NCBI GenBank assembly: GCA_044344255.1
Contig: JBIJDH010000006.1
Span: 32,001 to 96,000 of the forward strand
Direction of reading: 5' to 3'
Source: Myxococcota bacterium
GTDB taxonomy: Bacteria > Myxococcota_A > UBA796 > UBA2385
DNA length: 64,000 nt
A model generated the notes under the pieces. It did not search any database, was not told the DNA's origin, and worked only from the letters and a program-made list of their open reading frames with translations. Shown piece by piece: positions 24,343 to 41,892 of this stretch. Within the stretch, counting starts at the first letter, position 1, and each line of letters starts with the position of its first letter. Made by a program: the position numbers and the translations under genes.

Positions 24343-27300
24343 TCAGCGACAGAGCTCGATCCGGCCCTCGACCCGCCGCGCTCGGCCTCGATCGCACAGG
24401 ATGGTGACGCCGGCGGCGATCCGCTCCTCGGCTCGCCGACCGCGCCCGGTGAGGCCGAAGAGGCGCGCGGTCTCGCGGATGAGGGCATCCACCGGGAGGG
24501 AGAGGTTCTGGCGCAGCACATAGAGCGCGCCCGCCGCCATCTCTTCGGCGGGGATCTGCTCGGGCTCGCGGAGGATGCCGTTGGGCGCGGCCCCGCGGAT
24601 GACGGTCCACTCCTCGGGGTCCTGGCCCTCTGCCCACACAAAGCCGTCGATCACGTCGAGCTTGCCGCGGGTCTCGACGGTCGCGACGGCCTCTCCGAGG
24701 CGGCGCCGAACCCGGTCGGTCATCCGGCTGACCCCCCAGCAGGCCGCGACCCGCCGGTACAGCTCATCGACGGCGATGGGGGCCTCTGCCTCGACGAGGA
24801 GGAGGATGCGCCGCTCGATGAGGGGCGTGGCGGCGGGGAGGTACAGGGCCTCGGGATCGGAGGAGACGGGCTCGAGGCCGGCGAGGCGGTAGGGGATGAC
24901 GGGGGCGCGGGGCTTCATCACCGCCTCGAGGCGGCTGGGCTTGGGCGCCTCGGCGGCGGCCTCGCGGGAGCTGTCGAGGGGTGAAGGCGTGGGCGGAGCC
25001 GGGAGCGGAGCGGTGAGGGGCGCAGGCTCGGGCGAGGCGGCGCCGCGACGGCGCTCCTCGAGGGCGGCCTGGAGGGCCGCCTCGACGCGGGCGAGGGTGC
25101 CCTCCCGATCTTGGAGGAGGTCGGTCGACCAGACGCGGAGCACCCGCCAGCCCAGCTGCTGGAGCACGGCGGGCCGGAGGCGGTCGCGGTCGCGGACGGT
25201 GGCGGCGGCGCGGTAGGTGGGCCCGTCCCCCTCGATGGCCATCAGGTACTCGCCCGGCTGGTCGGGGTGCACCACCGCGAGGTCGACCCGGTACTCCCCG
25301 GTCCCCACCTGGCAGTCGACCGTCCAGCCTCGGGCGCTGAGCGCGGCGTGGAGGTCGGCCTCGAAGGGGGAGGGGAAGTCCTGCTGGCGCAGCCGCTGCG
25401 CCCCTTGGCCTCGCGCGGCGGCGAGGCGGAGGAAGGCCTGCAGGTGGCGCGCGCCCACGGCGGGGGCCCGGCTGAGGTCGATCTGGTCGGCGGTGAGGGT
25501 GGCGAAGATCCGCAGCGTCTCCCGGGCCCGCGTGATCGCGACGTTGAGGCGGCGCTCGCCGCCGGCCCGGTTGAGGGGGCCGAAATTCATCCAGACGCGG
25601 CCGCCCTCGTCAGGGCCGTAGCAGACGCTGAACAAGATCTCGTCCCGCTCGTCGCCCTGCACGTTCTCGAGGTTCTTGACGAAGACCGGCTCGGGGATGC
25701 CCTCGGCGAAGTGCGGCTCGATCTCGGGGCAGCGGCCGCGGGCGAGGTCGAGGAGATCGGACACCAGCGCCTGCTGGGGCATGCTGAAGGTGACCACCCC
25801 GAAGCTGCGCGCGCCGGGCCGGGTGGCCTGGAGGGAGGCGACGAGGTGCTCAACCAGGGCCTCGGCCTCCGCGCGGTTGGTCCGGCTCTTCCCCTTCTCG
25901 TAGACCCCGCCCGGCACCGGGTGCAGGTGCAGGCCGAGCTCTGGGTCTCGGCTGCGGGCGGCGGGGAAGATCTGGAGCTTGTTCTCGTAGGAGTGCTCGT
26001 TGCTGAAGGCGATCAGCGACTCGTGCCGGCTCCGATAGTGCCAGCCGAGGGTCATCTGGGGCAGGCCGGCGGCCAGGGCCTCGTCGAGGATGCTCTCCAG
26101 CTCCACGACGTCGTTCTCGTCGGGCAGGGCCTCCTCGGCGGTGTCGCGGGTAAAGAAGGTGGTGGGCGGGAGCTGCTTGCTGTCCCCCACGATGACCACC
26201 TGCTCGCCGCGCGCGATCGCCCCGATGGCCTCGTGGGTGCCGATCTGGCTGGCCTCGTCGAAGACGACGAGGTCAAAGCGCCGCCCGCTCGCAGGGAGGT
26301 ATTGGGCCACGGACAGGGGGCTCATCAACAGACAGGGCTTGAGCCGCGGGAGGAGGTTGGGGATCGAGGCGAGCAGCTTTCGGAGGGGCAGGTGGGCCCG
26401 CTGCTTTCGCAGCTCGCGTTGGAGCAGCGCGGGCTCCCCACCCTCGGCGGCGCCACCCGCGGGCAGCCGCTCCTCTACCCGCCGCAGCACCTGTGCCCGG
26501 GCGAGGGGCAGCAGCGCGGCGTCGATCGCCCGGAAGCGTGCGACCCGTCGATCCTGTTCGTCCCCGCTGAAGGTGCGCAGCAGGGGCTCGTTGTCGCTGA
26601 AGGTCACGCACCAACGCTGGAGCAGGGCTCGCTCGACGGCGCGGCGGAGGTCGGCCGCGCGCACGCGGTCGGTCTTGTGAGCTTCCACGATGCCGGAGAG
26701 CCCGAGGCGGCGGCACCCCTCGGCGGCCCGCCCGTAGAGGGACCAGGCCCGGAAGCGGGGCAGCGCGGCGCCCCACGCCTCGACCTGTTGGCGGAGACTG
26801 GAGAGGTAGTCCGCGGTGTCGGGGTCGCCGAGGTTGGCCTCGACGAGCCCTTCGAGGCGAGAGCGGGCCCCGCGCAGCCGACCAGCGGCGGCCGCGAGCT
26901 CCGCTGATCGCGCGGAGAGGTTGGCGCGACGCGGGTCTTCACCATCGGCGCGGAGGAGGTCGAGGAGGAGGGTGGGCTCCCCGCCGCCGGCCGCCTTCCA
27001 CGAACGGCGGGCCTCCTGGAGGGCCTCAACTTCGCGGAGCAGCGTCGCCAGGGCCGCCGGATCGCCGGACCAGGTGCCCTCCAAGACCTGAACGAGGGCA
27101 GCGCGCTCTGCCTCGTGAGGGGGCTCGAGCGCCTGGACGTCGCGCAGCGTCGAGAGATCGGCCGTGATCCGCGCGTCCGCCGGGAGGTCACCGCGGGCGA
27201 AGCGCCGGAGGCTCTGGCGCGGAAAGAATAGGAAGATCCAAGCGAAGAGGAAGAAGGAGCCGGCCCAGGTCTTGAATTGGAGGTAAATATTGCCGAGGGG

Positions 27301-30300
27301 AGCGCGGAGCAGCTCGTCTCGCCACCGCTGTGCGAGATCGGCGCGTCGCTCGTGGTCCTGCTGATGGAGCCCGAGCCAGGCCGTCGCCCGGGCCGCGATC
27401 TCCGGCCAGACCGGGCTCAGCAGGGCGGGCGGCAGCGGACGCGCGGCGAGGGCGGCGCCGAGCGAGGCGAGGACCTCGGCGCCGCGGAGGCTCCCGAGCG
27501 CGGGGGTGTGGAGGCTGGAGGCCACAGCCCGCAGCGCGCGGTCGAGCTCCGTCTCTCCCTCCCGGACCTCTTCGAGGGCCGCCCGGACAGCCTCGTCGGT
27601 GCCATGGCTCCAGTCGGTGATGCGGGTGTCGCGCCAGGGATTGGCGGGCACGGGCTCGACGGCCTGCGCCGCCACCGCGAGGCTGTCCACGGCCTCCGAC
27701 ATCGCGGAGAGCCAGGCTTGATCGATGCGGGTGACGTCGGCGAAGGTGAGGCGCACGTCGGGCGCGTCGCGGAGCCCGAGGAGGCGCCCCCCGACCTGAT
27801 GCAGGCTGAGCCCGAGGAGGCGGGGGCTGTGCAGGGCGCGGACGACCCCGTGGAGCTGCCCGCGGAGGACCTCCAGCTCCCGATTCCGCGCCGCCCACAT
27901 CGGGTCGTCGGCCAGGGCCCTGCGCTCGAGGGCGCGACCGAGCTCGGTGACGACCTCCTTCTTGCTCGCCTTGTGGGAGTGGAGCTCCAGCACGGCGCCG
28001 CCGAGGCCCACCTGCTGGAGGCGCCGGTGGACGACGTCGAGCGCGGCCATCTTCTCGGAGACGAAGAGGACCGACTTGCCCTCGGCCAGGGCCGCCGCGA
28101 TAAGGTTGGTGATGGTCTGGGACTTGCCGGTGCCCGGCGGCCCCTGGAGCACGAAGCTCCGCCCCCGCAGCGCGGCCAGCACCGCCACGATCTGCGTGCT
28201 GTCTGCGTCGAGGACGAGGGGGAGCGCGCCGCAGGGCAGCTCGGAGTCGAGCTCGGTGGCCTCGGGGGCGGGTGGCGCCGCCGGTGCCGCCTGCAGCCCC
28301 CCGGCGGCGAGGTGTCGGACCACCGCGTTCTCGAGGAGGACCGAAGCGCTCTCTTCGAGGTCCCGCCACATGAGGAAGCGGGTGAAGGTGAAGAGGGCGA
28401 GGTGGGCCTCATCGAGCACCTCCCAGCGGGGGACGCGGCTGATCGCGGCCCGGGCGGCGCGGAGCAGCGCGCCCATGTTCACGCCCGCCTCGTCTCCCTC
28501 GGGGTTGGCGAGGAAGGGCATCTCAACGGCGTAGTCCCGGCGCAGCTTCTCGGCGAGCGTGATGTTGCCGATCGGCTCTTCGTCGATGCGACGCAAGCGG
28601 AGCCGGCGGGTTCGGCGGTCGAAGTCGAGGCGGACCGGCAAGAGGAGGAGGGGGGCGTAACGGGGGCTGGTGACGTCCTCTGCCTCGAACCACTTGAGCA
28701 GACCGAGGGCGACGAAGAGCGTATTGGCGCCGCCCTCTTCGAAGTCACGGCGGGCCGCTCGATCGAGCTCGACGGCCCGCTTGACGAGCTCCGGCTCGGT
28801 CCAGGGGACGTGGATGAGCTGCCGATCGAGGTCATCGGAGCGGCGGCGCTGGAGGTCACCGGCCTCCGTGCGGGTCTCGACGAGGCTCGGATCGCGCGCG
28901 TCCCGGGGGTCCGATGGGGGGCGCGGCAGGAGCTCGTAGGCACGGTCGGAGGACAGCCCGTCCTCGAGGCGCCCGAGGTCTGGCACGAGGAGCGGCAGGG
29001 CGCCGCCGAGCCCCGGCCGGAAGTTGAGCAGGCGGTTGCGGAGGGAGAGGTCGAGCAGGCGCTCCGACCAGCGGCGCAGGCGGGCACGGACGGGGTCGGC
29101 GGGCGCGGTCGCGCTCCCCGACGGGGACCCGGGCGGGAGGGGCACCAGCTCGACCTGGGGTTCCTCGAGCTGCGGCGGCCCGCCCTCGATGCCCTCGCCT
29201 GCAGCCTCGCCCGCGGCCTCGCCGGCGGAGCGCTCGGCGGCCGGCGGGTGGATCCGCAGGGGGAGGGGGAGGTAGCGCTCGCCGCGGGCGACCCGCAGGT
29301 CGATGGCACAGATGAAACGCTCATCGTCGGAGAGCTGCGCCCGGGCGGCCTCGATCGCCACCTCGACCCCCGGCGTCCCGGCCGCGGTGAGCGCGGTGAC
29401 GTCAAAGACCAGCAGCTCATCGAGGCCGAGCAGGCTGCGCAGGCGCGCCGCGTCGCCGACCACACCTTCGGGGAAGCGGTCGTCCGTGAGCCAGACTCCG
29501 AGGAAGATGTGGCCCCGCACGATGATGAGGAGCGGGGCGAGGCGGAGCTGCTCGAGCAGCGCGGCCACGAACAGGCTGAGATCGAGGCAGTTGCCCATCT
29601 CCTCCTGGATGATCTGATCGGGCAGGCGCACCTTCTGGCCCACCGCCTCGAAGCTCGCGGCGCCCCCGATGTAGCTGAGGCCGAGAGACCGAAAGGCCTC
29701 GAGGGCCCCCAGCGCCAGGGTGCGGACCCGCGAGGTCGACCGGGTGGGGTACCCGTCGAGGGAGGGATCCCCCGACCGCGCGACCACCGCCTCCCGCACC
29801 CGCGGCAAGAGGCGGCCGACGTCGGGGTGATTGGGGAGGACGAAGCAGGAGAGCAAGGCGGGCGGTGCGCGGAAGCCCGGCCACTCGTTGAAGGCGAGCA
29901 GCTGGATGCCGACATCGCCAGACGCCAGCACCGCGCCCTCCGGGGCCTCGGGGCCGCCCGGCGCGCCGCGGAGGCACCACCGGAGCCGGATCTGCTCCGC
30001 CTCGACCACCGCGCGGACCCGGCCCGGCGGGGTGGGCAGATCCAGCGGGCCAAGCTCCGCGGTCTCCCCGCCGTGGAGAGGGGGGATCGCGAAGACGTGG
30101 CGGGGACCGAGGTCAGGGAGGAGCTCGACCTCCAGCCGGACCCCGTGTAAGGGCGCCGCGCGGTCGTTGAAGATCCGGACCATCGGGACGAGGGGGACCC
30201 CGCTCTGCTCGAGCGCGAAGTTGAGCGTCGGGGCGACCGTCAGGCTGACCCGGACCCCGTCGCCGCCCTCGCCGCCCGAGGGCGCCTCGTCGCCGCGCGA

Positions 30301-30369
30301 CTGGGGCTCCGCCCCGGGAGGCGTGGACCGGGGCGGCTCTGCCCGCGTGCTCAGCTCGGTGGGGGTCAA
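24343..30369 (-). CDS. DUF4011 - SF1 (Upf1-like) helicase - Vsr-like nuclease - DUF3320 protein (Hhe-type)
   Basis: LLDLSLRNRLLNF (DUF4011); QGPPGTGKSQTI Walker A; FDEASQ, GDSKQLPPT, WHYRSRHE, ENVQGDERD, RRLNVAITRA; nuclease-like YRVDLAV...IEGDG..Y...RDRDRLR...LGWRVLRVWS; N-terminal GNCLD...GH transglutaminase-like motif. Confidence 0.9.
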   Translation of the reverse strand: MTPTELSTRAEPPRSTPPGAEPQSRGDEAPSGGEGGDGVRVSLTVAPTLNFALEQSGVPLVPMVRIFNDRAAPLHGVRLEVELLPDLGPRHVFAIPPLHGGETAELGPLDLPTPPGRVRAVVEAEQIRLRWCLRGAPGGPEAPEGAVLASGDVGIQLLAFNEWPGFRAPPALLSCFVLPNHPDVGRLLPRVREAVVARSGDPSLDGYPTRSTSRVRTLALGALEAFRSLGLSYIGGAASFEAVGQKVRLPDQIIQEEMGNCLDLSLFVAALLEQLRLAPLLIIVRGHIFLGVWLTDDRFPEGVVGDAARLRSLLGLDELLVFDVTALTAAGTPGVEVAIEAARAQLSDDERFICAIDLRVARGERYLPLPLRIHPPAAERSAGEAAGEAAGEGIEGGPPQLEEPQVELVPLPPGSPSGSATAPADPVRARLRRWSERLLDLSLRNRLLNFRPGLGGALPLLVPDLGRLEDGLSSDRAYELLPRPPSDPRDARDPSLVETRTEAGDLQRRRSDDLDRQLIHVPWTEPELVKRAVELDRAARRDFEEGGANTLFVALGLLKWFEAEDVTSPRYAPLLLLPVRLDFDRRTRRLRLRRIDEEPIGNITLAEKLRRDYAVEMPFLANPEGDEAGVNMGALLRAARAAISRVPRWEVLDEAHLALFTFTRFLMWRDLEESASVLLENAVVRHLAAGGLQAAPAAPPAPEATELDSELPCGALPLVLDADSTQIVAVLAALRGRSFVLQGPPGTGKSQTITNLIAAALAEGKSVLFVSEKMAALDVVHRRLQQVGLGGAVLELHSHKASKKEVVTELGRALERRALADDPMWAARNRELEVLRGQLHGVVRALHSPRLLGLSLHQVGGRLLGLRDAPDVRLTFADVTRIDQAWLSAMSEAVDSLAVAAQAVEPVPANPWRDTRITDWSHGTDEAVRAALEEVREGETELDRALRAVASSLHTPALGSLRGAEVLASLGAALAARPLPPALLSPVWPEIAARATAWLGLHQQDHERRADLAQRWRDELLRAPLGNIYLQFKTWAGSFFLFAWIFLFFPRQSLRRFARGDLPADARITADLSTLRDVQALEPPHEAERAALVQVLEGTWSGDPAALATLLREVEALQEARRSWKAAGGGEPTLLLDLLRADGEDPRRANLSARSAELAAAAGRLRGARSRLEGLVEANLGDPDTADYLSSLRQQVEAWGAALPRFRAWSLYGRAAEGCRRLGLSGIVEAHKTDRVRAADLRRAVERALLQRWCVTFSDNEPLLRTFSGDEQDRRVARFRAIDAALLPLARAQVLRRVEERLPAGGAAEGGEPALLQRELRKQRAHLPLRKLLASIPNLLPRLKPCLLMSPLSVAQYLPASGRRFDLVVFDEASQIGTHEAIGAIARGEQVVIVGDSKQLPPTTFFTRDTAEEALPDENDVVELESILDEALAAGLPQMTLGWHYRSRHESLIAFSNEHSYENKLQIFPAARSRDPELGLHLHPVPGGVYEKGKSRTNRAEAEALVEHLVASLQATRPGARSFGVVTFSMPQQALVSDLLDLARGRCPEIEPHFAEGIPEPVFVKNLENVQGDERDEILFSVCYGPDEGGRVWMNFGPLNRAGGERRLNVAITRARETLRIFATLTADQIDLSRAPAVGARHLQAFLRLAAARGQGAQRLRQQDFPSPFEADLHAALSARGWTVDCQVGTGEYRVDLAVVHPDQPGEYLMAIEGDGPTYRAAATVRDRDRLRPAVLQQLGWRVLRVWSTDLLQDREGTLARVEAALQAALEERRRGAASPEPAPLTAPLPAPPTPSPLDSSREAAAEAPKPSRLEAVMKPRAPVIPYRLAGLEPVSSDPEALYLPAATPLIERRILLLVEAEAPIAVDELYRRVAACWGVSRMTDRVRRRLGEAVATVETRGKLDVIDGFVWAEGQDPEEWTVIRGAAPNGILREPEQIPAEEMAAGALYVLRQNLSLPVDALIRETARLFGLTGRGRRAEERIAAGVTILCDRGRARRVEGRIELCR

Positions 30370-32068: not shown

Positions 32069-32707
32069 GTGGCGCTGCAAGACCTGCTTCGGTGGCTCAT
32101 CCCCCGAGAGGACCAGTTCTATTCGTACTTGCTTTTGCAGGCGGCAGAGTCTCGGAAGGGGGCGCTGGCCCTCGGCGAGTTCAGGAACGGGAAGAGCGCC
32201 CTCGAGGTGAGCGCGGCGGTTCAGGCCCACGAGCACGAGGGGGACCGGATCGTCTACGAGATGGAGAACGCGCTCGGACGCACCTTCGTCACGCCAATCG
32301 ATCGCGAAGACCTGCAGCGGCTCTCCGCGGAGCTCGACGACATCCTCGACCTCACGAACAGCGCGGCGCGCGCCGCGACGATGTTCGGCGTGGAGACCCC
32401 AACCCAGCCGATGACACACCTGATCGGTGTGCTCATCGACTGTACCGGTCACATCGAGACGGCGATCACGAAGATGACGCAGAATGACTACGCGGCGGTC
32501 TTAGCGACCGTGCGGATCATCCGTCAGCTCGAGAAGGACGGGGACGCCGTCTTTCGCACCGCCCTCTCCCGTCTGTTCCACGATCCGTCGGTCGAAGCCA
32601 AGGTGTTGCTGCGAGAGAAGGAGGTCCTCGAAGACCTCGAGCACGCGGTCGACCGATGTGAGCACCTCGCGCACACCCTCGCCCACCTCGCCGTGAAGCA
32701 TGGTTAG
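32069..32707 (+). CDS. DUF47 (PhoU-like) phosphate transport regulator
   Basis: EHEGD, TFVTPIDREDL, LDDILD, LEKDGD, LE.AVDRCE motifs; overlaps pit. Confidence 0.92.
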   Translation: MALQDLLRWLIPREDQFYSYLLLQAAESRKGALALGEFRNGKSALEVSAAVQAHEHEGDRIVYEMENALGRTFVTPIDREDLQRLSAELDDILDLTNSAARAATMFGVETPTQPMTHLIGVLIDCTGHIETAITKMTQNDYAAVLATVRIIRQLEKDGDAVFRTALSRLFHDPSVEAKVLLREKEVLEDLEHAVDRCEHLAHTLAHLAVKHG

Positions 32708-33734
32708 CCTGCTCGTCGCGGTGGTGGTGGCGGCGATTATCTTCGATTACATCAACGGCTTTCACGACGCCGCCAACGCCATCGCCACGATCGTCTCCAC
32801 CGGCGTGCTCCCGATGCGCACCGCGGTCATCATGGCGGGGGCCTTCAATTTCATCGGCGCGATGGCGGGTACGGCGGTCGCCAGCACCATCTCGAAGGGG
32901 CTGGCTGATCCGGCCATCGTCACCCAGACGGTGGTCTTGTCCACCTTGATCGGGGCCTGTCTGTGGAACCTCCTCACCTGGTGGTGGGGGATCCCTTCGA
33001 GCTCTTCTCACGCCCTCGTCGGGGGCCTCGCCGGCGCCGTCATCGCCCACGCCGGCGTGGACGCCTTCAACTGGGCGACGCTGATCGACAAGATCCTGGT
33101 CCCCCTCGTGGTGTCGCCCACCCTCGGCTTCGTGGTCGCCTTCCTGCTGAGCGTCCTGCTGCTGTGGGTCTTTCGGCGGGTGCGCCCGTCTCGCGTGAAC
33201 CGCCTGTCGCGCGGGATGCAGCTCGTCTCGGCCTCCGCGATGGCGTTCTCCCATGGGTCGAACGACGCCCAGAAGTCGATGGGCATCATCACCCTGGCCC
33301 TCGTCTCCTTCGCCTCGGCCGGGCACTCCGACGGTGTGCCCGCGTGGGTCCTCCCGACAGCGGGAGAGGTGCCGACGTGGGTGGTGATGATCTGCGCGAC
33401 CGCGATCGGCCTCGGGACCCTGGCGGGGGGCAAGCGTATCATCAAGACCATGGGGACGCGGATCATCCGCATCACCCCCCTCCAGGGCTTCGCGGCGGAG
33501 ACGGCGGGCGCGGCCACGATCCTCACCGCTTCGCACTTCGGGGTGCCGGTGTCGACCACCCACTGCATCAACGCCTGCATCATGGGGGTGGGCGCCAGCA
33601 AGCGGCTGAGCGCGGTCCGTTGGGGTGTGGCCGGCAACATCGTGGTCGCCTGGGTGGTGACGCTGCCGATGAGCGCCGCCCTCTCCTGGATCTCGATGAG
33701 CCTCATCGCTCGGGTCTTCGGGGAGACCGGGTAG
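32700..33734 (+). CDS. pit: Inorganic phosphate transporter (PiT family)
   Basis: NGFHDAANAIAT, GIPSSSSHAL, HGSNDAQKSMG, PVSTTH signatures. Confidence 0.95.
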   Translation: MVSLLVAVVVAAIIFDYINGFHDAANAIATIVSTGVLPMRTAVIMAGAFNFIGAMAGTAVASTISKGLADPAIVTQTVVLSTLIGACLWNLLTWWWGIPSSSSHALVGGLAGAVIAHAGVDAFNWATLIDKILVPLVVSPTLGFVVAFLLSVLLLWVFRRVRPSRVNRLSRGMQLVSASAMAFSHGSNDAQKSMGIITLALVSFASAGHSDGVPAWVLPTAGEVPTWVVMICATAIGLGTLAGGKRIIKTMGTRIIRITPLQGFAAETAGAATILTASHFGVPVSTTHCINACIMGVGASKRLSAVRWGVAGNIVVAWVVTLPMSAALSWISMSLIARVFGETG

Positions 33735-33966: not shown

Positions 33967-35787
33967 ATGTCCGAAGCCGCCGCCCCCCAGGTCTATTGCA
34001 GCCGCTGCCTCACCACCTTCGCGGGTGACCCGGAGCAGTGCCCCAACATGTCCTGCCAGCGGAAGCGGCCGGGGCGCGGTTGGGGGCAGATCTTCGCGGC
34101 CGGTGAGGTCTTTGACCGGAACTACAGCATCCACCGCATGCTCGCGATGGGCGGCGCCGGGGTGACCTACACCGCGCGCGAGATCGGCCCCGATGGCCAG
34201 GAGACGGGCCCGAAGCTTGCGATCAAGGTGCTGCTCGCCGCCCGAGATCAGGGCCCCTATGTGCGGCGCCTCTCCACCGAGGCGCAGATCATCCAGGAGC
34301 TCGATCACCCCAACATCGTGCAGTACCTGGGCTTCGTCCACCGCGCGGGCCACTCGCCCTACCTCATCACCCAATTCGAAGAGGGGGGGAGCCTCCTCGA
34401 CCACATGCGACGGGTGGGGACGCTCCCCGTCCGCCGTGCGTCGGGCGTGGCGCGTCAGATCTGCCTGGCCCTCGAGAAGGCCCATGAGCGCGGGATCATC
34501 CACCGCGACCTGAAGCCCGAGAACGTGCTGCTGGCGAGCGCGGTCCCCGCCGACGCCGATCCGGTCGTGCGGGTGGCAGACTTCGGCATCGCCAAGGTCC
34601 AGGGTGGGGTGGGGGGGAGCCTCACCCGGGTGGGCGCCTTCGTCGGCACGCCGCACTACGCCGCCCCGGAGCAGTTCGTGGGCGGGGCGGTCACCGAGGC
34701 GGCCGACGTCTACGCGGTCGGCGCCCTGGTCTACTTCTGCATCACCGCCCGCCACGTCGTGCGCTTCGCCGATCGGCTGGAGCCCGAAGAGGGCTTCCAG
34801 CTCCTCCAGGAGAGCCTGCCGCCGAAGGTGGAGCGCGCGGGGGAAGACCCCCTCGATGTCCTGCGCATCAACCGCATCCTCGCCAGCGCCATGAACGTCG
34901 ACCCCTCGCAGCGCTGCTCGGTGGTGGAGCTGTCGCGGATGCTGGGTGAGCTCATCAACGGTCTCGAGCCCGCGATCCCGGTCAAGGCGAAGCGCGGGGG
35001 GCTCACCCACGACATGGTGGGTCAGGCCAGCGTGCTCGGCCTCGCGGGCGCAATCACGCCGATGCTCTCGGCGATCGCCGCCACCGAGCCCGCCGCGCCC
35101 TCACAGCGCCGCGGGGCCCCTGGGCGAGAGGCGGCCACCGCCCAGGAGAGCCGCCCCACCGAGATGGGCGCCAGCACCGACGCGGCGCTGCTCCAGCAGA
35201 TGATGTCCCCCGACGGCGCGGTCTCCAAGGGTGCCGCGGGGGCGCGCCGGACCACCGGCGGCGGCCGTCCCGCCTCACCCGCCGAGGCCAGCGGCACGCT
35301 CGACGCCCTCCGCACCGGCGACGACGACGCGCCGACCCCGCGACGCGGCGGCGGAGGCCTCGCGATGATGGCGCTCGGCCTCGTGCTGTTCGTCGGGGTG
35401 GCGGTGGTGGGCGGCGGGGCCCTCGTGGTCTGGCGGGTGCCGGCCGCGCGGCAGGCCCTCGGGCTCTCCGACCGCGATCCCAACCTGCCGAAGCCCGTCG
35501 AGCTCAGCGGGCAGGAGACGGACGCCGCCATGCGGAAGGACTGGCGGGCGATCGACAGCTCGCTCAAGGGGCTCCAGAGCTGGCTCGGCAGCCAGTGCAA
35601 GGTGAAGAGCGGCGCCGATGTCGCGCTGCGCCTCGTGATCGAGCCGGACGGGAAGGTGCGCTCGGCCGAGAACATCGACGGCTCCGGCGGCGAGACCGGC
35701 GAGTGTGTGTCCAAGAAGGTGAAGAAGGCCAAGTTCACCCGAACCGGGACGAAGCCCGTTCGGGTGGAGCTCACCGCGCACTTCTGA
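33967..35787 (+). CDS. Membrane Ser/Thr protein kinase with N-terminal Zn ribbon and C-terminal TonB-C/AgmX-like domain
   Basis: CSRC...CPNMSC; AIK, HRDLKPEN, DFG, GTPHYAAPE; one TM; C-terminal LVIEPDGKV...ECV...KF. Confidence 0.92.
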   Translation: MSEAAAPQVYCSRCLTTFAGDPEQCPNMSCQRKRPGRGWGQIFAAGEVFDRNYSIHRMLAMGGAGVTYTAREIGPDGQETGPKLAIKVLLAARDQGPYVRRLSTEAQIIQELDHPNIVQYLGFVHRAGHSPYLITQFEEGGSLLDHMRRVGTLPVRRASGVARQICLALEKAHERGIIHRDLKPENVLLASAVPADADPVVRVADFGIAKVQGGVGGSLTRVGAFVGTPHYAAPEQFVGGAVTEAADVYAVGALVYFCITARHVVRFADRLEPEEGFQLLQESLPPKVERAGEDPLDVLRINRILASAMNVDPSQRCSVVELSRMLGELINGLEPAIPVKAKRGGLTHDMVGQASVLGLAGAITPMLSAIAATEPAAPSQRRGAPGREAATAQESRPTEMGASTDAALLQQMMSPDGAVSKGAAGARRTTGGGRPASPAEASGTLDALRTGDDDAPTPRRGGGGLAMMALGLVLFVGVAVVGGGALVVWRVPAARQALGLSDRDPNLPKPVELSGQETDAAMRKDWRAIDSSLKGLQSWLGSQCKVKSGADVALRLVIEPDGKVRSAENIDGSGGETGECVSKKVKKAKFTRTGTKPVRVELTAHF

Positions 35788-35817
35788 GCGCGCAGGCGGT
35801 CGCCGCGCGGCCTCGTG

Positions 35818-37026
35818 TCAGTCGCCGCCTCCGCCGCAGGAGCTGCCGCAGCTCGAGCCGCCGTCGCTGGACGAGCAGCTCGAGCCGCCGTCGCCGCCGC
35901 CGTCGGAGGTGTCGGAGCCGCCCCAGCCGCCGTCGCCGCCGCCGTCGCCGCCCTCCCCGGCCTCGGTGTCGGAGCCGCCCCAGCCGCCGTCTTCGCCGCC
36001 GCCGCCGCCGTCCGAAGTGTCGGCGGTGTCAGAGCCGCCCCAGCCATCGTCGGAGCCCCCGCTCGCGCCCTCGGGCACGTCTTCGCTGACCCCGAGCTCG
36101 TCGCCGGTCCAATCCACCTGGCTGGTGCCGAGATCGCCGAGCTGCTCGACCTGATCGCCTCGCCCGAGCTCGTGGCCGTGGCTGTCGACCACCACCACGT
36201 CATGGCTGTGCCAGTGCGCGTGATGGGACATCGAGTTGAGGAGGATGAGGTTCGTGAGAGACCAGTAGGGGTCGTGGTAGTAGACGGTGAAGGTGTCGGG
36301 GGCCGCCCCGGCCCGGGCCGGCGCGCCTCGCCAGGCGGGCTCGGCCACGTCCTCCCCGAAGGGGAGCCGGCGCATCGCGTCGAGCTGACGGTCTCCTGGC
36401 TTGTGCAGGCGCACCTGGGCGAGCTCCGTGCTGACCTCGGCGCCGATCAGGCCGCGACGGAGCGCCGCCGCGAGGAGGTCGGCCCGTTCGTCGAGGAGGT
36501 GGGCCAGGGCGGTGCGGTCGATGGCGCGGGCGAAGTGGCCGACGCGCTCGGCGTAGGCGGCGGCGGTCTCTCCGGCCTGGACGCGCAGCTCGAGCGGGCG
36601 GGCGTGGAGGTCGATCGTCAGCTCGGGCCAGCCCTTCTCCACCTGGCTCTTCACGCGCAGATCGTAGAGGATGTGCAGGCCGATGTGGGTCTCGGCGAGC
36701 ACGAGGTGCATCTCGCGGAAGGGCCGCTCGACGAGGCGGCGGTCGACCAGGGCCTGCCAGACGAGGTCGAGGTCGTCGGCGACGTCGTTCTGATCGACGT
36801 AGACGGCCTTGCGGTCGACGAGGCAGGAGTGAGCGTCGGTGACGCCGATGCTCCGGAGCGCCTGAAAGCAGCCCTCGAACAGGGAGAAGGCGCTGACGGT
36901 GAGCTCCTCCATCCCGCTCCGGGTGTCGATCTTGGCGCCGAACAGCGAGCGGGCCCACTCGAAGAAGGTCTTGCGCCGGTCGGTCTCGACGCTCGGGAGA
37001 TCGACCAGCACGCGTGCGTGGAACAT
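35818..37026 (-). CDS. Hypothetical protein with His patch and Gly/Ser/Asp tail ending in three SSC motifs; candidate MNIO substrate
   Basis: Start reassigned to ATG 37026 (TGATG overlap; AGAGAGG upstream); tail ...SSCSSSDGGSSCGSSCGGGGD. Confidence 0.8.
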   Translation of the reverse strand: MFHARVLVDLPSVETDRRKTFFEWARSLFGAKIDTRSGMEELTVSAFSLFEGCFQALRSIGVTDAHSCLVDRKAVYVDQNDVADDLDLVWQALVDRRLVERPFREMHLVLAETHIGLHILYDLRVKSQVEKGWPELTIDLHARPLELRVQAGETAAAYAERVGHFARAIDRTALAHLLDERADLLAAALRRGLIGAEVSTELAQVRLHKPGDRQLDAMRRLPFGEDVAEPAWRGAPARAGAAPDTFTVYYHDPYWSLTNLILLNSMSHHAHWHSHDVVVVDSHGHELGRGDQVEQLGDLGTSQVDWTGDELGVSEDVPEGASGGSDDGWGGSDTADTSDGGGGGEDGGWGGSDTEAGEGGDGGGDGGWGGSDTSDGGGDGGSSCSSSDGGSSCGSSCGGGGD

Positions 37027-37844
37027 CAACGGCCTCTCTTTTGTAGGGTGGCACTCTGGAGCGTGGAGGCGTGGAGGGCGGCGGCCTCGGCCTCGATCTG
37101 GCGGAGGCGGCCGACGCGCACCGTGGCGTCCCCTTCGGCGCGCGCGGCGGCGGAGAGGCGGGAGGTCAAGCTGGCGGCCCGCTCCTGGATGGCGCGCGCG
37201 TCGGCGGTGTCGAGCGCTTCGGCCCGCATCGTGATGGCGGCGATGGTGGACTCGGCCTCGCTTCGGGCCGCCTCCACGGCGTCTCCGGTGGCGCGGGCAG
37301 CCTGTCGTCGCCGCCAGAGCACGAAGCCGAGGCCGCCGATCGTGAGGGAGCCGGCGAGGCCCATCGCGCCGAGCAGCCCGCCCATGAGCCCGATACCACC
37401 GCTCGTCTCGCCCTCGGCCTCGCCCTCGGCCGCTGGGGCTCCGTCGGCGGAGGCCACGGCGCCGCCCGAGAGCCCGCTGATCGCGGCCTGCAGGCCCAGG
37501 CCGAGGTCTCGGTCGCGGGCCGGCTCGGCGGCGTCGAGCAGCGTGGAGATCCGCCCGGCCGGCTGCCCCCAGCCGCGCGCCTCCCAGCGGCCGCCGGCGT
37601 CGAGGAGGAGCAGGTCGGCGTCGGCGTCGAGGCCGAGCTCCTGCCACAGCGCCCGCCAGTCGGTGATCGGCGCGTCGGATGGCAGCAGCACGATCTTGGC
37701 CTCGAGGCCGCGCGCGCCGAGCGGCTCGAGCTGCTTGAGGAGCCGAGCCCGCCCGGCGGCCTCCAGTCGGCCGCTGGGGTCCCACAGGGGAGAGCCCTCG
37801 AGGGCGCGGCGCGCCTCGTCCAAGGTCGCGTCGGGGAGGCTCAT
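37026..37844 (-). CDS. TPM-domain-like membrane protein with C-terminal coiled coil
   Basis: LWDPSGRL...KIVLLP...LWQELGL...DLLLL resembles TPM; one TM followed by WRRR; ATGA overlap with the DUF692 gene. Confidence 0.6.
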   Translation of the reverse strand: MSLPDATLDEARRALEGSPLWDPSGRLEAAGRARLLKQLEPLGARGLEAKIVLLPSDAPITDWRALWQELGLDADADLLLLDAGGRWEARGWGQPAGRISTLLDAAEPARDRDLGLGLQAAISGLSGGAVASADGAPAAEGEAEGETSGGIGLMGGLLGAMGLAGSLTIGGLGFVLWRRRQAARATGDAVEAARSEAESTIAAITMRAEALDTADARAIQERAASLTSRLSAAARAEGDATVRVGRLRQIEAEAAALHASTLQSATLQKRGR

Positions 37845-38749
37845 CTCTGGGGCTCCTGGGAAGGGGGGGCGGGAGAGATCATAGGGACGGGGCGAGCCTC
37901 CGACCAGCGCCCGATCGCGCTGCGTGCTTCGGCGACGAGCTCGGCGAGGGGAGGGAGGCGGGTGTCCCGCTCGAGCACGATGGCGTCGAGGGGGGCGCGC
38001 CCCCGTAAGGCGGAGAGCAGGGCCCAGGCGCCCTCCTCCACCGGCCGGTCGTGGCTGTCTATCCAGCCGGCGGCGCTGCGCTTCGAGCCGGCGACGTGCG
38101 CTTGGACGGCGCGGTGTAAGGGCCAGGCGTCGAGGCGGCCGCGCGCCGAGCCGTGACCGTTCCCTTCGTCGACGAACAGGTTGCTGAGATCGACGAGGAG
38201 CCCGATGTCGGCCCGCTCGACGAGGGCGTGAAGGAACTCCCCCTCCGGCATCTCGCCGGGGAAACGAAAGGGGGGGAAACGAAAGGGAGTGGCGGGGTTC
38301 TCGAGGGCGAGGGGCAGCCCGAGCGTGTCCTGGAGCGCGCGGCAGTGCTCCGTCAGCACCGTGAGGAAGGCCGGGAGGCGTGGCACGGGGGCGAGGTGAC
38401 CGAGGTCAATGCCGCTGGGGCTGCGCGTGATGGCGATGTGCTCGGTGAGGCGCTCCGCCCGGGACGCGCGCGCCACCGCCGCCACGCGGGCTACGCGCGC
38501 GGGGTCGAGGGGCCCGGGGGTGCCGAGGGAGAGCCCCGTGTCGTGCAGCACGATGGGGTAGCGCTCGGCGAGGGGGCGGAGGGCGTCGGGCTCGTGGAAG
38601 AAGTGGTCGACCACCACCTCGAGCAGCTCGGGCCCCTGACCGTCGGCGGCGGCGAGCAGCTCCCGGAGGTGGGCGCGCCGGAGGGACAGGCCGGCACGGG
38701 GGCGTCGCGGCCCGGGGAGGGGGTCGCTGCACATGGGGGCGCTGCTCAT
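37841..38749 (-). CDS. DUF692 multinuclear non-heme iron oxidative enzyme (MbnB/TglH/ChrH family)
   Basis: GLSLR, LEVVVDHF, VLHDTGLSLG, TEHIA, GHLAPVP, LALEN, LLVDLSNL, AHVAG, IDSH, VLERD ligand motifs; start at ATG 38749 (ATGA overlap). Confidence 0.93.
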   Translation of the reverse strand: MSSAPMCSDPLPGPRRPRAGLSLRRAHLRELLAAADGQGPELLEVVVDHFFHEPDALRPLAERYPIVLHDTGLSLGTPGPLDPARVARVAAVARASRAERLTEHIAITRSPSGIDLGHLAPVPRLPAFLTVLTEHCRALQDTLGLPLALENPATPFRFPPFRFPGEMPEGEFLHALVERADIGLLVDLSNLFVDEGNGHGSARGRLDAWPLHRAVQAHVAGSKRSAAGWIDSHDRPVEEGAWALLSALRGRAPLDAIVLERDTRLPPLAELVAEARSAIGRWSEARPVPMISPAPPSQEPQR

Positions 38750-39306
38750 GGGGCATCTCGCCAGCGCAGGCGGGGGCCGAGCTCGTAGAGGGTCGGGCTG
38801 GGTTCGACCTCGATCGGGACCTGCCCCCTCTCCAGCTCGTCCCACAGGCGGTGGAGGGCGAAGCGGGCGCGGAGGCGGCGCACGCGGCCGTCTCGGCGAG
38901 AGGTCGCGCGGGCGCGCTCGAAGGCGAAGAGCTCCACCGCGTAGACAGGCCCCTCGTCGGAGATCGCGGCCCGGAGCACTTCATCGGCGCGCCAGGCCTC
39001 GGACAGCCCGGGGGGCAAGAGCCCGTCGGTGTGGGGGGCCGGGTGGTCGGCCAGGAAGCGGCGGTAGGCCCCGCCGAGCCCCGGGCAGAGCCGCGCCGTG
39101 AAGGGGAGGGCCCGACACAGCTCATCCTGGCGCTTCTCGAGGAGGGAGGCCGCGAAGCGCTCGAACTCCTCGGTCACGAGGGCGGCGCGGCGGAGTCGCC
39201 GGTCGGCCAGCAGGCCGACATAACGCTCCACGAAGGGGCCCACGGAGGCGGCGAGGTCGGGCTCGGCCGCCTCGGAGGCGCTCACGGCGTCCCAGAGGTC
39301 CTTCAA
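38746..39306 (-). CDS. Putative MNIO partner protein
   Basis: TTG start in TTGA overlap; FAASLLEKR...ALPFTARL...YRRF...ELFAFERARA pattern like proteins adjacent to DUF692 genes. Confidence 0.6.
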   Translation of the reverse strand: MKDLWDAVSASEAAEPDLAASVGPFVERYVGLLADRRLRRAALVTEEFERFAASLLEKRQDELCRALPFTARLCPGLGGAYRRFLADHPAPHTDGLLPPGLSEAWRADEVLRAAISDEGPVYAVELFAFERARATSRRDGRVRRLRARFALHRLWDELERGQVPIEVEPSPTLYELGPRLRWRDAP

Positions 39307-40208
39307 CCGGCGACCTCGAACAGGAAGGGGAAGGCGTAGACGTGGTCCGGATCGGCCTCCCTGCGGACCTGCACCCACATCTTGTAGAGCCCGCCCGCGG
39401 GCATCACGTAGTGGAAGGGGAGGTCTGGGCCGTTGTATTGGTGAGGCATCTCCATGCCGGGCGCCATGCTGTCCATCCCGGGGAACCAGGCGTGGGTGTG
39501 TGTGACCCAGGAGAGGTCGGCCTGCACGACGGCGGCGTGGGCGTCGGCGCCGAGCCAGGGGGTGACGTCGGTGACTGGGGCGCCGTCGGCGTCGGTGAGG
39601 TGGACGGTCCAGATCGCCTCGTAGCCGGCGACCGCCGGGACGTCCCAGGTCAGGGTGGCGGTGAGGTCGTCCACCATGACCTGGGTTCGCAGATCCTCGA
39701 CCGGCGCGTCGAGCTGGGGCACGTCACCGCCCACCTCCAAGTCGCCCTCTCGTGTGAACCAGGCGTTCTGGTGGGCGAAGTCGAAGACGAGGTGATGCGG
39801 CCCCGAGCGGTCGAAGGTGATCGGGAAGGAGTAGGTGGCCTCTCGGAGATTATCGGCGGTGACCGGGGTGGAGTCTTCCTGGTGGAGGTGCTGGAAGGCC
39901 TCGAGGTCGCGGCTGATGAAGAGGGTGTGCACCATCCGCTCGTGGTTCTGCTGGAGGTCCTCGATCGGGCAGGCGTCCTGATCGGTGATCTGGAGGGTGA
40001 AGGTGGCCTCTTCGCCCGCGACGGGGGGGGCTGGGGCGGTAGACCAGCTCACGTTGTACGCCGTCGTCTGGGTGTCGCCGCAGGCGGCGGGCTCGGCGGT
40101 GTCCGCGGCCTTGGTACAGCCGGCGAGGCCGAGGGCGACGAGCGCGACCCGGGTGACGCGGGTGACGCGGGTGACGCGGGTGACGAGGGCGGGGTTGAGC
40201 GGGCGCAT
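39303..40208 (-). CDS. Secreted His-rich, heavy-metal-binding-type lipoprotein
   Basis: Lipobox LAGC; two halves with HERMVH...FQHLH and PWLGADAH...THTH; Met-rich loop PGMDSMAPGMEMPH; G.YKMWVQ. Confidence 0.75.
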   Translation of the reverse strand: MRPLNPALVTRVTRVTRVTRVALVALGLAGCTKAADTAEPAACGDTQTTAYNVSWSTAPAPPVAGEEATFTLQITDQDACPIEDLQQNHERMVHTLFISRDLEAFQHLHQEDSTPVTADNLREATYSFPITFDRSGPHHLVFDFAHQNAWFTREGDLEVGGDVPQLDAPVEDLRTQVMVDDLTATLTWDVPAVAGYEAIWTVHLTDADGAPVTDVTPWLGADAHAAVVQADLSWVTHTHAWFPGMDSMAPGMEMPHQYNGPDLPFHYVMPAGGLYKMWVQVRREADPDHVYAFPFLFEVAG

Positions 40209-40260
40209 GCGGGAGACTAACGGCCTGTCCGAGGGTCGGACCCCCCGTTACGGCGTCGCG

Positions 40261-40899
40261 ATGAGCGACGAACTCCTCCTTGGCCACTCGCGCTTCCGCA
40301 ACAGCTACGTGAAGCGGACGCGCTCCTTCCTCGACAAGCTGGCGGCGGAGTCCCAAAACCCGGACGCCCTGTTCATCGGCTGCTCCGACTCCCGGGTGAT
40401 CCCCGAGCTGCTCACGAGCTCGAGCCCGGGCAAGCTCTTCGTGATTCGGAACGTGGCGAACATCGTGCCCACCTTCGCCAACGTCGACTCCAGCGTCGGC
40501 GCGGCGATCGAGTACGGCCTCGGCGTGCTCGGCGTCGAGAACATCGTGGTCTGCGGCCACACGGGCTGCGGCGGTGTCGAGGCCTTGCTGGGCGACGACC
40601 ACCACGGGCTCGACACGATGCCCTCGGTCAAGGAGTGGCTGGAGGCCGCCCGGCCCGCGGTGATGTCGGTCCGCCGCGCCGATCGTGAGGCTTGGTGGCG
40701 CGCGGCGGTGGAGGCGAACGTGCTGTCCTCCATGTCCAACCTCGCGTCCTACCCCTGCGTGGCGCGTGCCCTCGAGGAGGACCGCTTGGACCTTCACGGC
40801 TGGGTCTACGACCTCCGTGGCGCCCACCTCGACGTCTACGACGGTCGACAGCGGGCCTTCGTTCCGCCCGATCAAGTGCTCTCCCGCACACTCGTGTGA
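40261..40899 (+). CDS. Beta-class carbonic anhydrase
   Basis: FIGCSDSRV, RNVAN, AAIEY, CGHTGCGG, HGWVYD. Confidence 0.95.
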   Translation: MSDELLLGHSRFRNSYVKRTRSFLDKLAAESQNPDALFIGCSDSRVIPELLTSSSPGKLFVIRNVANIVPTFANVDSSVGAAIEYGLGVLGVENIVVCGHTGCGGVEALLGDDHHGLDTMPSVKEWLEAARPAVMSVRRADREAWWRAAVEANVLSSMSNLASYPCVARALEEDRLDLHGWVYDLRGAHLDVYDGRQRAFVPPDQVLSRTLV

Positions 40900-41034
40900 G
40901 CCCGGGCACGCTGACGTGACGCTTTTCCTTGCGGCCTCGTCAACGCTAGCGCATAGTCCAGCTTGGTTGCCTTGGCCTTCCTGGCTCAGCTGGATAGATA
41001 GGTAGGTAAGTCTCCCGACGCTGTGAGGTTCAAC

Positions 41035-41892
41035 ATGTCCGCGCTCACCATCCCCGTCGCCGTCTTGGCGCTCACCCTCTCCTCGGTCGCGCAGGCGGCC
41101 TGCCCCACCGGCATGAACGAGATCACCGGAACCACCGGTGATGACATCTTGAATGGCACCTCCGCCGCGGATTGTATCCTCGGCCTCGCCGGCAACGACA
41201 CCATCAAGGGCTTCGGTGGGAATGACTACGTCGAAGGTGGGGACGGCGACGACCTCATCGACGGCGGGTCGGGCAACGACACCTTGTACGGCAACAACGG
41301 GAACGACGACATCAGCGGCTCGACCGGCGATGACATCCTCTACGGCGTGAACGGGAACGACATCCTCCGCGGCGCCACGGGCAACGACCTGCTCTACGGC
41401 CAGAACAACGACGACGACCTCCGCGGCAGCGACGGCAACGACACGCTCGACGGCGGCGGCGGCAACGACGCCCTCTCCGGCGGCAACGGCAACGACATCC
41501 TCTACGGGCGGTCGGGTGTGGACGCCATCCTCGGCGGCGCCGGCGACCACGACAAGATCTACGGCAGCTACGACAATGACACCATCACGGACGGCGACGG
41601 CGCCGTGTACGTGTCGGGTGACTCCGAGGATGACATCCTCAAGGTGACCTACCGCCTCGGCTGGCGGAACACCTCGGGCGCGGCCACCGTCAACGCGGTG
41701 TACGGCAACGCGGGCAACGACACCGTGCAGGTGATCTTCGACGTCTCCGAGACCTTCACCCTCAAGATCTACGGCGACGCGGCGACCGCCGCCGCGACCG
41801 ACGGCACCGCCGACATCTCGAAGTGCACCGGCACCTTCAGCGCGACCTCGGCGTCGAGCGGCTTCGAGACCGAAGGCGCGAACTGCCCGTAG
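41035..41892 (+). CDS. Secreted RTX-type (hemolysin Ca-binding repeat) protein
   Basis: Sec signal peptide; many GxxGNDxLx nonapeptide repeats. Confidence 0.88.
   Translation: MSALTIPVAVLALTLSSVAQAACPTGMNEITGTTGDDILNGTSAADCILGLAGNDTIKGFGGNDYVEGGDGDDLIDGGSGNDTLYGNNGNDDISGSTGDDILYGVNGNDILRGATGNDLLYGQNNDDDLRGSDGNDTLDGGGGNDALSGGNGNDILYGRSGVDAILGGAGDHDKIYGSYDNDTITDGDGAVYVSGDSEDDILKVTYRLGWRNTSGAATVNAVYGNAGNDTVQVIFDVSETFTLKIYGDAATAAATDGTADISKCTGTFSATSASSGFETEGANCP

Follow-up and report, generated by a model that had tools for sequence, protein, structure and literature searches.

Whether MNIO (DUF692) enzymes act on real proteins is an open question, which has been raised for membrane proteins of the TIGR04222 family and is awkward to assay there. 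In a bioinformatic study, Antoine et al. (2025; PMC12452194) proposed systems of TIGR04222 membrane proteins with an MNIO and a PME-type 2 partner, and suggested that some MNIOs modify bona fide proteins (here and below, papers are given by PMC number). In this study, we analyzed a 64,000-nucleotide stretch of a Myxococcota bacterium genome (assembly GCA_044344255.1, contig JBIJDH010000006.1, positions 32,001 to 96,000), referred to as the window in the following. It carries five adjoining genes, A to E, for a lipoprotein-like protein, an MNIO partner, an MNIO, a single-pass membrane protein and a soluble protein with a Cys-bearing tail. We consider it likely that B, C, D and E constitute a conserved cassette in which C, together with B, oxidizes the tail Cys of E, probably to thiooxazoles, with the tail likely staying attached.

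The cassette resembles the TIGR04222 systems in combining a large protein that has an unstructured Ser/Gly/Cys C-terminus with an MNIO and a PME-type 2 partner, and in having no short precursor (PMC12452194). Unlike the TIGR04222 proteins, E has neither transmembrane segments nor a match to that family, and its tail is predicted to be cytoplasmic rather than periplasmic; moreover, it comes with its own MNIO clade, a linked membrane protein and the gene order partner, MNIO, D, substrate. Large tailed TIGR04222 proteins have already been proposed as MNIO substrates; what is new here is a soluble scaffold outside TIGR04222, with tails that co-vary with the enzyme.

Two other groups of MNIO systems invite comparison. 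The enzyme-partner pairs BufBC, HvfBC and FonBC, which belong to bufferin, oxazolin and captophorin, include the best NCBIfam matches of C and likewise have Cys-repeat substrates; the 5-thiooxazole of bufferin-class products absorbs at about 305 nm (PMC12668002). However, C stays below both model cut-offs, the partner lacks DUF2063, and E is not a short Sec-exported peptide and bears Ser-Cys-Gly/Ser rather than Lys-Cys motifs. TglH and TglI are similar in that all nine iron ligands of TglH align with C and that TglI has the fold closest to B, whereas TglH takes the β-carbon out of a single terminal Cys carried by a 50-aa scaffold (PMC10880893; PMC9016710) and the Cys of E lie in internal repeats. 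In the literature searched, from which subscription papers were excluded, we found no description of E, D or the cassette. Two E accessions and four guessed neighbor accessions were absent from the two spreadsheet supplements of PMC12452194, whose PDF supplement may bear on novelty. The original prediction, made from the DNA sequence alone, had not recognized the gene combination as characterized; the idea of a full-length protein as substrate is already found in PMC12452194 as a bioinformatic proposal for TIGR04222 proteins, though, within the literature searched, not for the E scaffold.

Co-variation of the tail of E with the neighboring enzyme

We collected 114 locus matches, which reduce to 76 distinct E rows, and placed 73 of these by a quick IQ-TREE search; L033, L042 and L047 were omitted because their sequences are frameshifted or fragmentary, and the placement of L002, L076, L081, L097 and L145, all on long branches, is unsure. 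The main clade (Shimodaira-Hasegawa (SH) support 100) holds 40 rows, namely two with an SbtM-type enzyme and 38 others. Thirty of the latter have at least 950 nt of upstream sequence, and in 24 of these, the window included, this MNIO is found upstream, so that the association of the tail protein with a DUF692 clade in other genomes is borne out. Of the 14 MNIO rows whose flank is long enough, 13 have B, and D is found in 22 of 25 MNIO rows, giving a conserved four-gene unit in the order B (partner), C (MNIO), D, E, and 19 of the 20 complete MNIO rows have three to eight tail Cys. The E-linked MNIOs themselves form one clade of 22 rows (SH-like support 99, from FastTree only), apart from 35 other MNIOs of the same genomes. 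Likewise, in one draw of 401 genomes of the phylum, strong matches to B (207-246 bits) occur only in G000, which is the window's genome, G115 and G157, the three with an MNIO-cassette E; another six matches are weak, four of them beside other MNIOs. Across the 55 E-bearing genomes, 13 have a strong B, all with a main-clade E, as opposed to none of the 20 of family f20 and neither of the two of SbtM type.

Where the MNIO is missing, the Cys tend to be missing as well. Four of the six informative rows without an MNIO (L002, L014, L076, L081) have no tail Cys, and L014, with no enzyme, is sister (SH 98) to L041, which has B-C and seven tail Cys. L013, the sister (SH 100) of the intact L043, retains one tail Cys and a 21-bit 3' scrap of C behind what by eye looks like a transposase gene. 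The sixth row, L015, has eight tail Cys and no MNIO upstream, and its B-C pair lies on another contig of the same genome. None of the 14 outgroup rows has a Cys in its tail or such an enzyme in the stretch of flank that was read, and two Bacteroidota homologs are stand-alone genes with Cys-free tails. Because E co-occurs with one MNIO clade and loses its Cys where the enzyme is lost, its tail is the likely substrate.

The strongest reason for calling it so is that the tail co-varies with the neighboring enzyme, as relatives of two radical S-adenosylmethionine (SAM) enzymes, the thiooxazole-forming SbtM and PapB, which like QhpD and CrpC forms ranthionines, fill the enzyme slot beside E homologs in other genomes; neither is present in the window. 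In G169 and G510, which belong to one genus, E ends in GGGCGGGY and is followed 7-8 nt downstream by a radical SAM domain that scores 464.6 and 444.5 bits, respectively, against the SbtM model TIGR04082 (cut-off 350) with its residues 1-340. This domain covers only positions 196-516 of the profile and lacks positions 1-195, so that it is not a full-length SbtM. SbtM makes thiooxazoles at Gly-Cys (PMC9204691), the ring type also made by bufferin-class MNIOs (PMC12538549; PMC12668002). In family f20, E was found in 20 of 26 genomes, as a D-E pair with a (CSSD/CSWD)n tail. A PapB-like radical SAM enzyme directly follows D-E in 14 of the 19 distinct rows; the genomes of the remaining five, all tested, carry an orthologue elsewhere, in three of them 4.3-5.3 kb downstream. 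Its best model is PapB (NF047865), at 112-114 bits and hence below the cut-off of 340. PapB links Cys-Xn-Asp with n from 0 to 6 (PMC9413430), and the f20 tails contain four to eight CxxD motifs each in all 19 rows. The residue before the tail Cys differs accordingly: it is Asp in 176 of 176 cases in f20, and Ser or Gly in 109 of 112 cases in the MNIO rows. Action of radical SAM enzymes on proteins has precedent in CrpC and QhpD, and in a radical SAM enzyme that cross-links a Cys-rich protein (all PMC13692751).

The short SbtM-like enzymes are not confined to such loci. Eight SbtM-like matches were found in the 401 genomes, three full-length and five short; one of the short enzymes lies behind E and another behind a TIGR04222 protein whose tail is of the same type (G126). 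As only these two of five do so, we rejected the rule that the short enzymes always follow a tailed protein. One genome without a tailed protein near its short enzyme, G115, also carries an MNIO cassette. In both genomes of the SbtM type, the reading frame of the SbtM-like enzyme (L080:8747-11275, L150:3229-5757) continues without a stop for about 840 codons, passing through an antisense shikimate-kinase-like gene (by eye) before it reaches a second radical SAM domain.

A number of observations weigh against the proposed modification of E. The basis throughout is gene context, and the kin compared do not count as independent cases: the pairing in f20 amounts to a single evolutionary event, and that with SbtM is seen in a single genus. 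D is missing in three of the 25 MNIO rows; L027, with a full B-C-D-E set, is the exception among the complete rows, having a single in-frame TGA before an otherwise intact Cys tail (a nonsense change, an error or read-through); in L016, the MNIO match is shortened at its 5' end and B is without a match; and G427 and G428 carry B-C not followed by E. For 10 of the 14 outgroup rows, the flanks span only 0.4-1.5 kb. Three of the five short SbtM-like enzymes have no Cys-tailed protein within 12-15 kb (G385, G114, G115; L203-L205). In the window, C scores below the BufB cut-off (163 against 310), so its chemistry may differ, and E has only three tail Cys, at the low end of the range of three to eight, together with a long branch (0.9). 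Finally, 80 of 105 wider-family representatives have at most one Cys in the last 45 residues, so that the folded domain has a function of its own.

The scaffold, the enzyme pair and the accompanying genes

The original prediction had described a DUF692 enzyme with intact-looking ligands, a 186-aa putative partner, a His/Met-rich lipoprotein and a 402-aa protein with a Cys-bearing tail, and these descriptions agree with what we find; its TPM-like membrane protein is single-pass, with TPM similarity confined to homologs. As for the families it named for checking, PF05114 is present in C and TPM weakly matches some homologs of D, while DUF2063 and TIGR04222 were not found in the members of the B and E families searched.

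E carries three Cys (384, 393 and 397) in a Ser/Gly tail that ends in SSCGSSCGGGGD. Its AlphaFold2 model has a mean predicted local distance difference test (pLDDT) score of 84.6, with residues 1-320 mostly above 90 and a disordered tail (pLDDT below 50 over 323-371 and 377-392). A maximal 19-residue hydropathy of 1.07, a value above 1.8 in only one of 83 homologs, and the α/β model indicate that there is no transmembrane segment. E matches no Pfam or NCBIfam family; searching the Atlas with it returned only hypothetical clusters, and Foldseek against the PDB gave no match at E ≤ 0.001. The best structural match, VIA (Z 6.6, root-mean-square deviation (rmsd) 2.5, 94 aligned), is not a clear one, although this is no proof of a new fold and the region after residue 203 was barely covered. 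TIGR04222 matched none of 56 E members at E ≤ 0.1, while the same model does match two tailed proteins from our survey: the scaffold at L174, which has the same tail type and precedes an MNIO, and a protein at L196:610-2520 (G126:C28; 57.7 bits), whose Ser/Gly/Cys tail is followed by a short SbtM-like enzyme (474 bits, cut-off 350).

We found 84 homologs of E, the window's own included. Of the 83 others, 79 have at least two Cys in the last 30 residues, as against a median of one in residues 1-300; the tails differ freely in their length and in how many repeats they contain. A profile search extended the family to 455 representatives (50% clustering). Among 105 further long ones, 25 have at least two Cys in the last 45 residues, the others being the 80 mentioned above, and so the Cys tail marks a subset of a wider, uncharacterized family. 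A second, distant group of homologs (P0212-P0246) has tails of the SSCGSSCGGGCGG type; two are ascribed to Enhygromyxa salina and Rubripirellula sp. A search for loci of this group that would show its neighbors gave no match in 113 genomes of one class, nor in viral contigs, and three plasmid matches are distant, the two that were read being Cys-free stand-alone genes. In P0155, an E-like domain is fused to a GGDEF domain, possibly hinting at a sensing role of the folded domain.

C exceeds the gathering score of PF05114 by far (193.6 bits, E = 4.9e-57, cut-off 25). Its residues H69, H104, E150, D187, N190, H218, D231, H233 and E260 align to the TglH ligands H71, H107, E151, D184, N187, H216, D229, H231 and E258 (ligand list from PMC10880893) and are invariant across 19 cassette MNIO members, so C looks catalytically intact. 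The best NCBIfam models are BufB (163 bits, cut-off 310) and HvfB (125.5 bits, cut-off 360), neither reaching its cut-off, followed by ApyH (74), ChrH (26) and MbnB (24). The window's genome encodes two further MNIOs: a typical one of 314 bits (L156, G000:C26:55359-56141), flanked by a cytochrome c protein with a MopE motif on one side and a protein with a YtkA domain on the other, and a divergent one that lies within an ORF (open reading frame) of 575 aa (L155, G000:C20:149597-150274).

Pfam and NCBIfam were of no use for A, B, D and E. For B, a sequence-profile search against the PDB gave no matches, and its placement comes from fold searches only. Its model (pLDDT 85.2) matches TglI (8hci; Z 10.7, rmsd 3.5, 155 aligned) and NGO1945 (3dee; Z 7.9, rmsd 3.0, 118 aligned), the next match being at Z 4.8, and TglI is also the top Foldseek match (probability 0.99, E = 8e-3). 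None of 17 B members has a Pfam match to DUF2063, the mark of PME-type 1 partners, at E ≤ 0.1. As modeled, B is thus a PME-type 2 MNIO partner with a TglI/NGO1945-like fold and no DUF2063 signature, in keeping with the partners of that type in PMC12452194.

D has one hydrophobic stretch, predicted to span the membrane at about residues 158-176 and followed by RRR, and a predicted helical C-terminal domain. TPM (PF04536) does not match D itself but weakly matches eight of 32 homologs (best E = 1.3e-4). Signal peptides, which were judged by eye in this study, are seen in f20 homologs of D and not in those of the MNIO type, and neither D nor its alignment consensus has a conserved Cys. The complex prediction for D and E weakly supports an interaction (score 0.55 against 0.00 for the best control, contact agreement of at least 58% between runs, partner pLDDT of at least 69). 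Of 157 solved pairs, 116 attained the mark applied to this score, as did 2 of 215 mismatched pairs; with a score of 0.60 or below, this holds for no more than 18 solved pairs but for both of the mismatched ones. That D holds E at the inner membrane is, in our estimate, an even bet.

A has a lipobox-like LAGC at residues 28-31 (by eye), 14 His and 9 Met. It has no YtkA match in hmmscan; its structural matches in the Atlas (TM-score 0.69-0.74), five rows of which give the aligned part the name PF31173, fall in clusters that contain fusions with CopC, HMBD and cupredoxin. As a YtkA domain is described to assist copper oxidase in B. subtilis (PMC13344008), a copper role of A is plausible by analogy. 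A 9-bp tandem repeat of 4.9 copies (40146-40189) encodes (VTR)4 in its signal peptide. We rejected A as a core member of the cassette: no match to it was found among the ORFs of the other E and B loci, 11 MNIO loci with at least 3.4 kb of upstream sequence among them, and its orthologues, which 12 of 60 relatives carry at 14 loci and which mostly show 43-56% identity, have unrelated genes as neighbors. Those 14 loci contain no B, C or E and a single 18-bit match to D. E was found neither in genomes carrying A orthologues nor in 21 genomes of the same family (68-96% complete). Going by these distributions, A is a separately mobile lipoprotein gene that is coupled to the cassette in this lineage; acquisition of the cassette probably placed it behind A.

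Proposed mechanism and alternative explanations

We propose that C, with B, would bind E in the cytoplasm and oxidize its tail Cys, probably by four electrons per Cys, to yield a 5-thiooxazole, and that E probably remains in one piece, with D possibly keeping it at the membrane. The parts of this proposal differ in strength. That B-C acts on the tail of E is quite probable from the gene context; for the product, we lean slightly towards a 5-thiooxazole, by analogy with bufferins and SbtM. The tail is probably not cut off, because no conserved protease or exporter was seen around the cassette. Whether the modified tail would serve as a cytoplasmic binding site for soft metals, Cu(I) for example, is more doubtful, analogy making it possible without tipping the balance in its favor. 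Equally tentative is a broader idea, in which E would be a cytoplasmic scaffold with a plug-in tail: different lineages would have paired it with an MNIO, an SbtM-like or a ranthionine-forming enzyme and recoded the tail to fit, the MNIO and the SbtM-like enzyme both making thiooxazoles, with or without oxygen, and the outcome being a metal-binding tail of the RiPP (peptide synthesized on ribosomes and modified after translation) type on a full-length, membrane-tethered protein.

E might instead be a RiPP precursor with a very large folded leader, from which a housekeeping protease frees a small Cys-rich peptide after B-C has acted. RiPPs are often released by proteolysis (PMC13692751), and a disordered tail of freely varying length and repeat number behind a long acidic linker would suit this; yet the folded domain is widespread without Cys or enzyme and thus not a leader reserved for this purpose, D accompanies E with either of two types of enzyme, and, by eye, neither a conserved protease nor a transporter accompanies the cassette in the loci listed, so that we judge such a release quite unlikely. 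A very unlikely alternative is that B-C acts on another substrate, either a small peptide elsewhere or D, and that the Cys of E remain unmodified in a thiol metal site or a disulfide tail. B-C does stand apart from E in G427 and G428, and the window's genome has its two further MNIO genes, but G427 and G428 still carry a Cys-tailed E, D has no conserved Cys and the operon no short precursor. Furthermore, the loss of Cys tracks the loss of the enzyme, and the residue before the Cys shifts with the enzyme class, which would not be expected of an unmodified thiol tail.

The original prediction had seen all five genes as one metal-handling system that modifies the tail of a large protein. Its substrate is supported by the co-occurrence and the loss of Cys with the enzyme, whereas the link to metal handling is weak because no E locus but this one has A, whose orthologues are located in other places. 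In such a system, A would pass copper to or from the modified tail. The TTGA overlap of A and B, whose junction is bridged in another sequencing run, the resemblance of A to YtkA-like domains fused to CopC, HMBD and cupredoxin (a YtkA domain being described as an aid to copper oxidase in PMC13344008) and the binding of Cu by thiooxazole peptides (PMC12538549) speak for this. Still, we regard it as unlikely, considering that A is absent from all other E and B loci and has 14 orthologous loci without B, C and E, that A is predicted outside and E inside the inner membrane, that the cassette has no conserved metal gene as a neighbor in other loci, and that the start of B, and hence its coupling to A, is uncertain. 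It is also highly improbable that the window's genome holds a decaying copy of a conserved system. The long branches of E (0.9) and C (0.93), the divergent N-terminus of B, the mere three tail Cys and the lack of an E match in the 21 genomes of the same family would fit decay, but all ORFs are intact and coupled, the nine ligands are kept, and a contig from run X7 differs at 11 sites without any indel.

If the tail of E is indeed modified by B-C, RiPP chemistry would take place on a full-length protein, through an MNIO clade whose Ser-Cys-Gly/Ser specificity is new, and nature would offer three enzyme classes for comparison on a single scaffold; this may also account for those tailed proteins that have no MNIO nearby. 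B-C-E is a direct test system for this, as E is soluble, confidently folded and has only three tail Cys.

Gene calls, assembly support and neighborhood

The five minus-strand ORFs encode 301, 186, 302, 272 and 402 residues for A to E, and each overlaps the next: TTGA at 39303-06 (A-B), ATGA at 38746-49 (B-C), ATGA at 37841-44 (C-D) and TGATG at 37024-28 (D-E). Genes, lengths and overlaps are all as originally predicted, and, as also claimed, we saw no plausible short precursor among the ORFs of at least 20 residues in 35600-41100 (by eye). The unit is bounded on either side, because its neighbors are a divergent carbonic anhydrase gene and a convergent Ser/Thr kinase gene. The A-B overlap is uncertain since the TTG start of B is: it has a GAGGT 6 nt upstream, the alternative being an internal GTG near V22, and the conserved N-terminal motif of the B family, which aligns loosely, begins near V22 by eye. 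The coordinates of all features are given in Table 1.

Table 1. Positions of the five genes and of the parts of E, counted from the first letter of the window
Feature	Position	Strand	Basis or remark
Gene A, lipoprotein-like, tandem YtkA-like domains and His/Met motifs	39303..40208	-	adjoins the cassette, outside the conserved unit
Gene B, MNIO partner, PME-type 2 (TglI-like), 186 aa	38746..39306	-	AlphaFold2 model and fold match to TglI
Gene C, MNIO (DUF692) enzyme, 302 aa	37841..38749	-	PF05114, nine iron ligands
Gene D, single-pass membrane protein, weakly TPM-like N-terminal domain	37026..37844	-	hydropathy, alignment
Gene E, 402-aa soluble protein, undescribed family, likely substrate	35818..37026	-	homolog searches
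Folded domain of E, residues 1 to about 320	36067..37026	-	AlphaFold2 model
Acidic linker of E, disordered, with three WGGSD repeats (period of 57 nt)	35884..36072	-	sequence, AlphaFold2 model
Ser/Gly/Cys tail of E	35821..35895	-	predicted modification sites Cys384, Cys393, Cys397
Tail Cys codons of E	Cys384 35875-77; Cys393 35848-50; Cys397 35836-38	-	sequence

The gene arrangement is not an assembly artefact, because contigs from public freshwater sequencing runs reproduce the gene order. The X7 contig covers the whole A-E stretch with 11 differences and no gaps, although X7 may be the source of the window's DNA; contigs from runs X14 and X6 bridge the A-B junction and cover B to E, respectively. 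One RNA run yielded a single contig of 231 nt, which says nothing on expression either way.

Elsewhere in the window, we noted a 2008-aa helicase-like protein (24343-30369, minus strand; by eye), a DUF47/PiT-like phosphate transporter pair (32069-33734, plus strand; by eye) and an RTX-repeat protein (41023-41892, plus strand).

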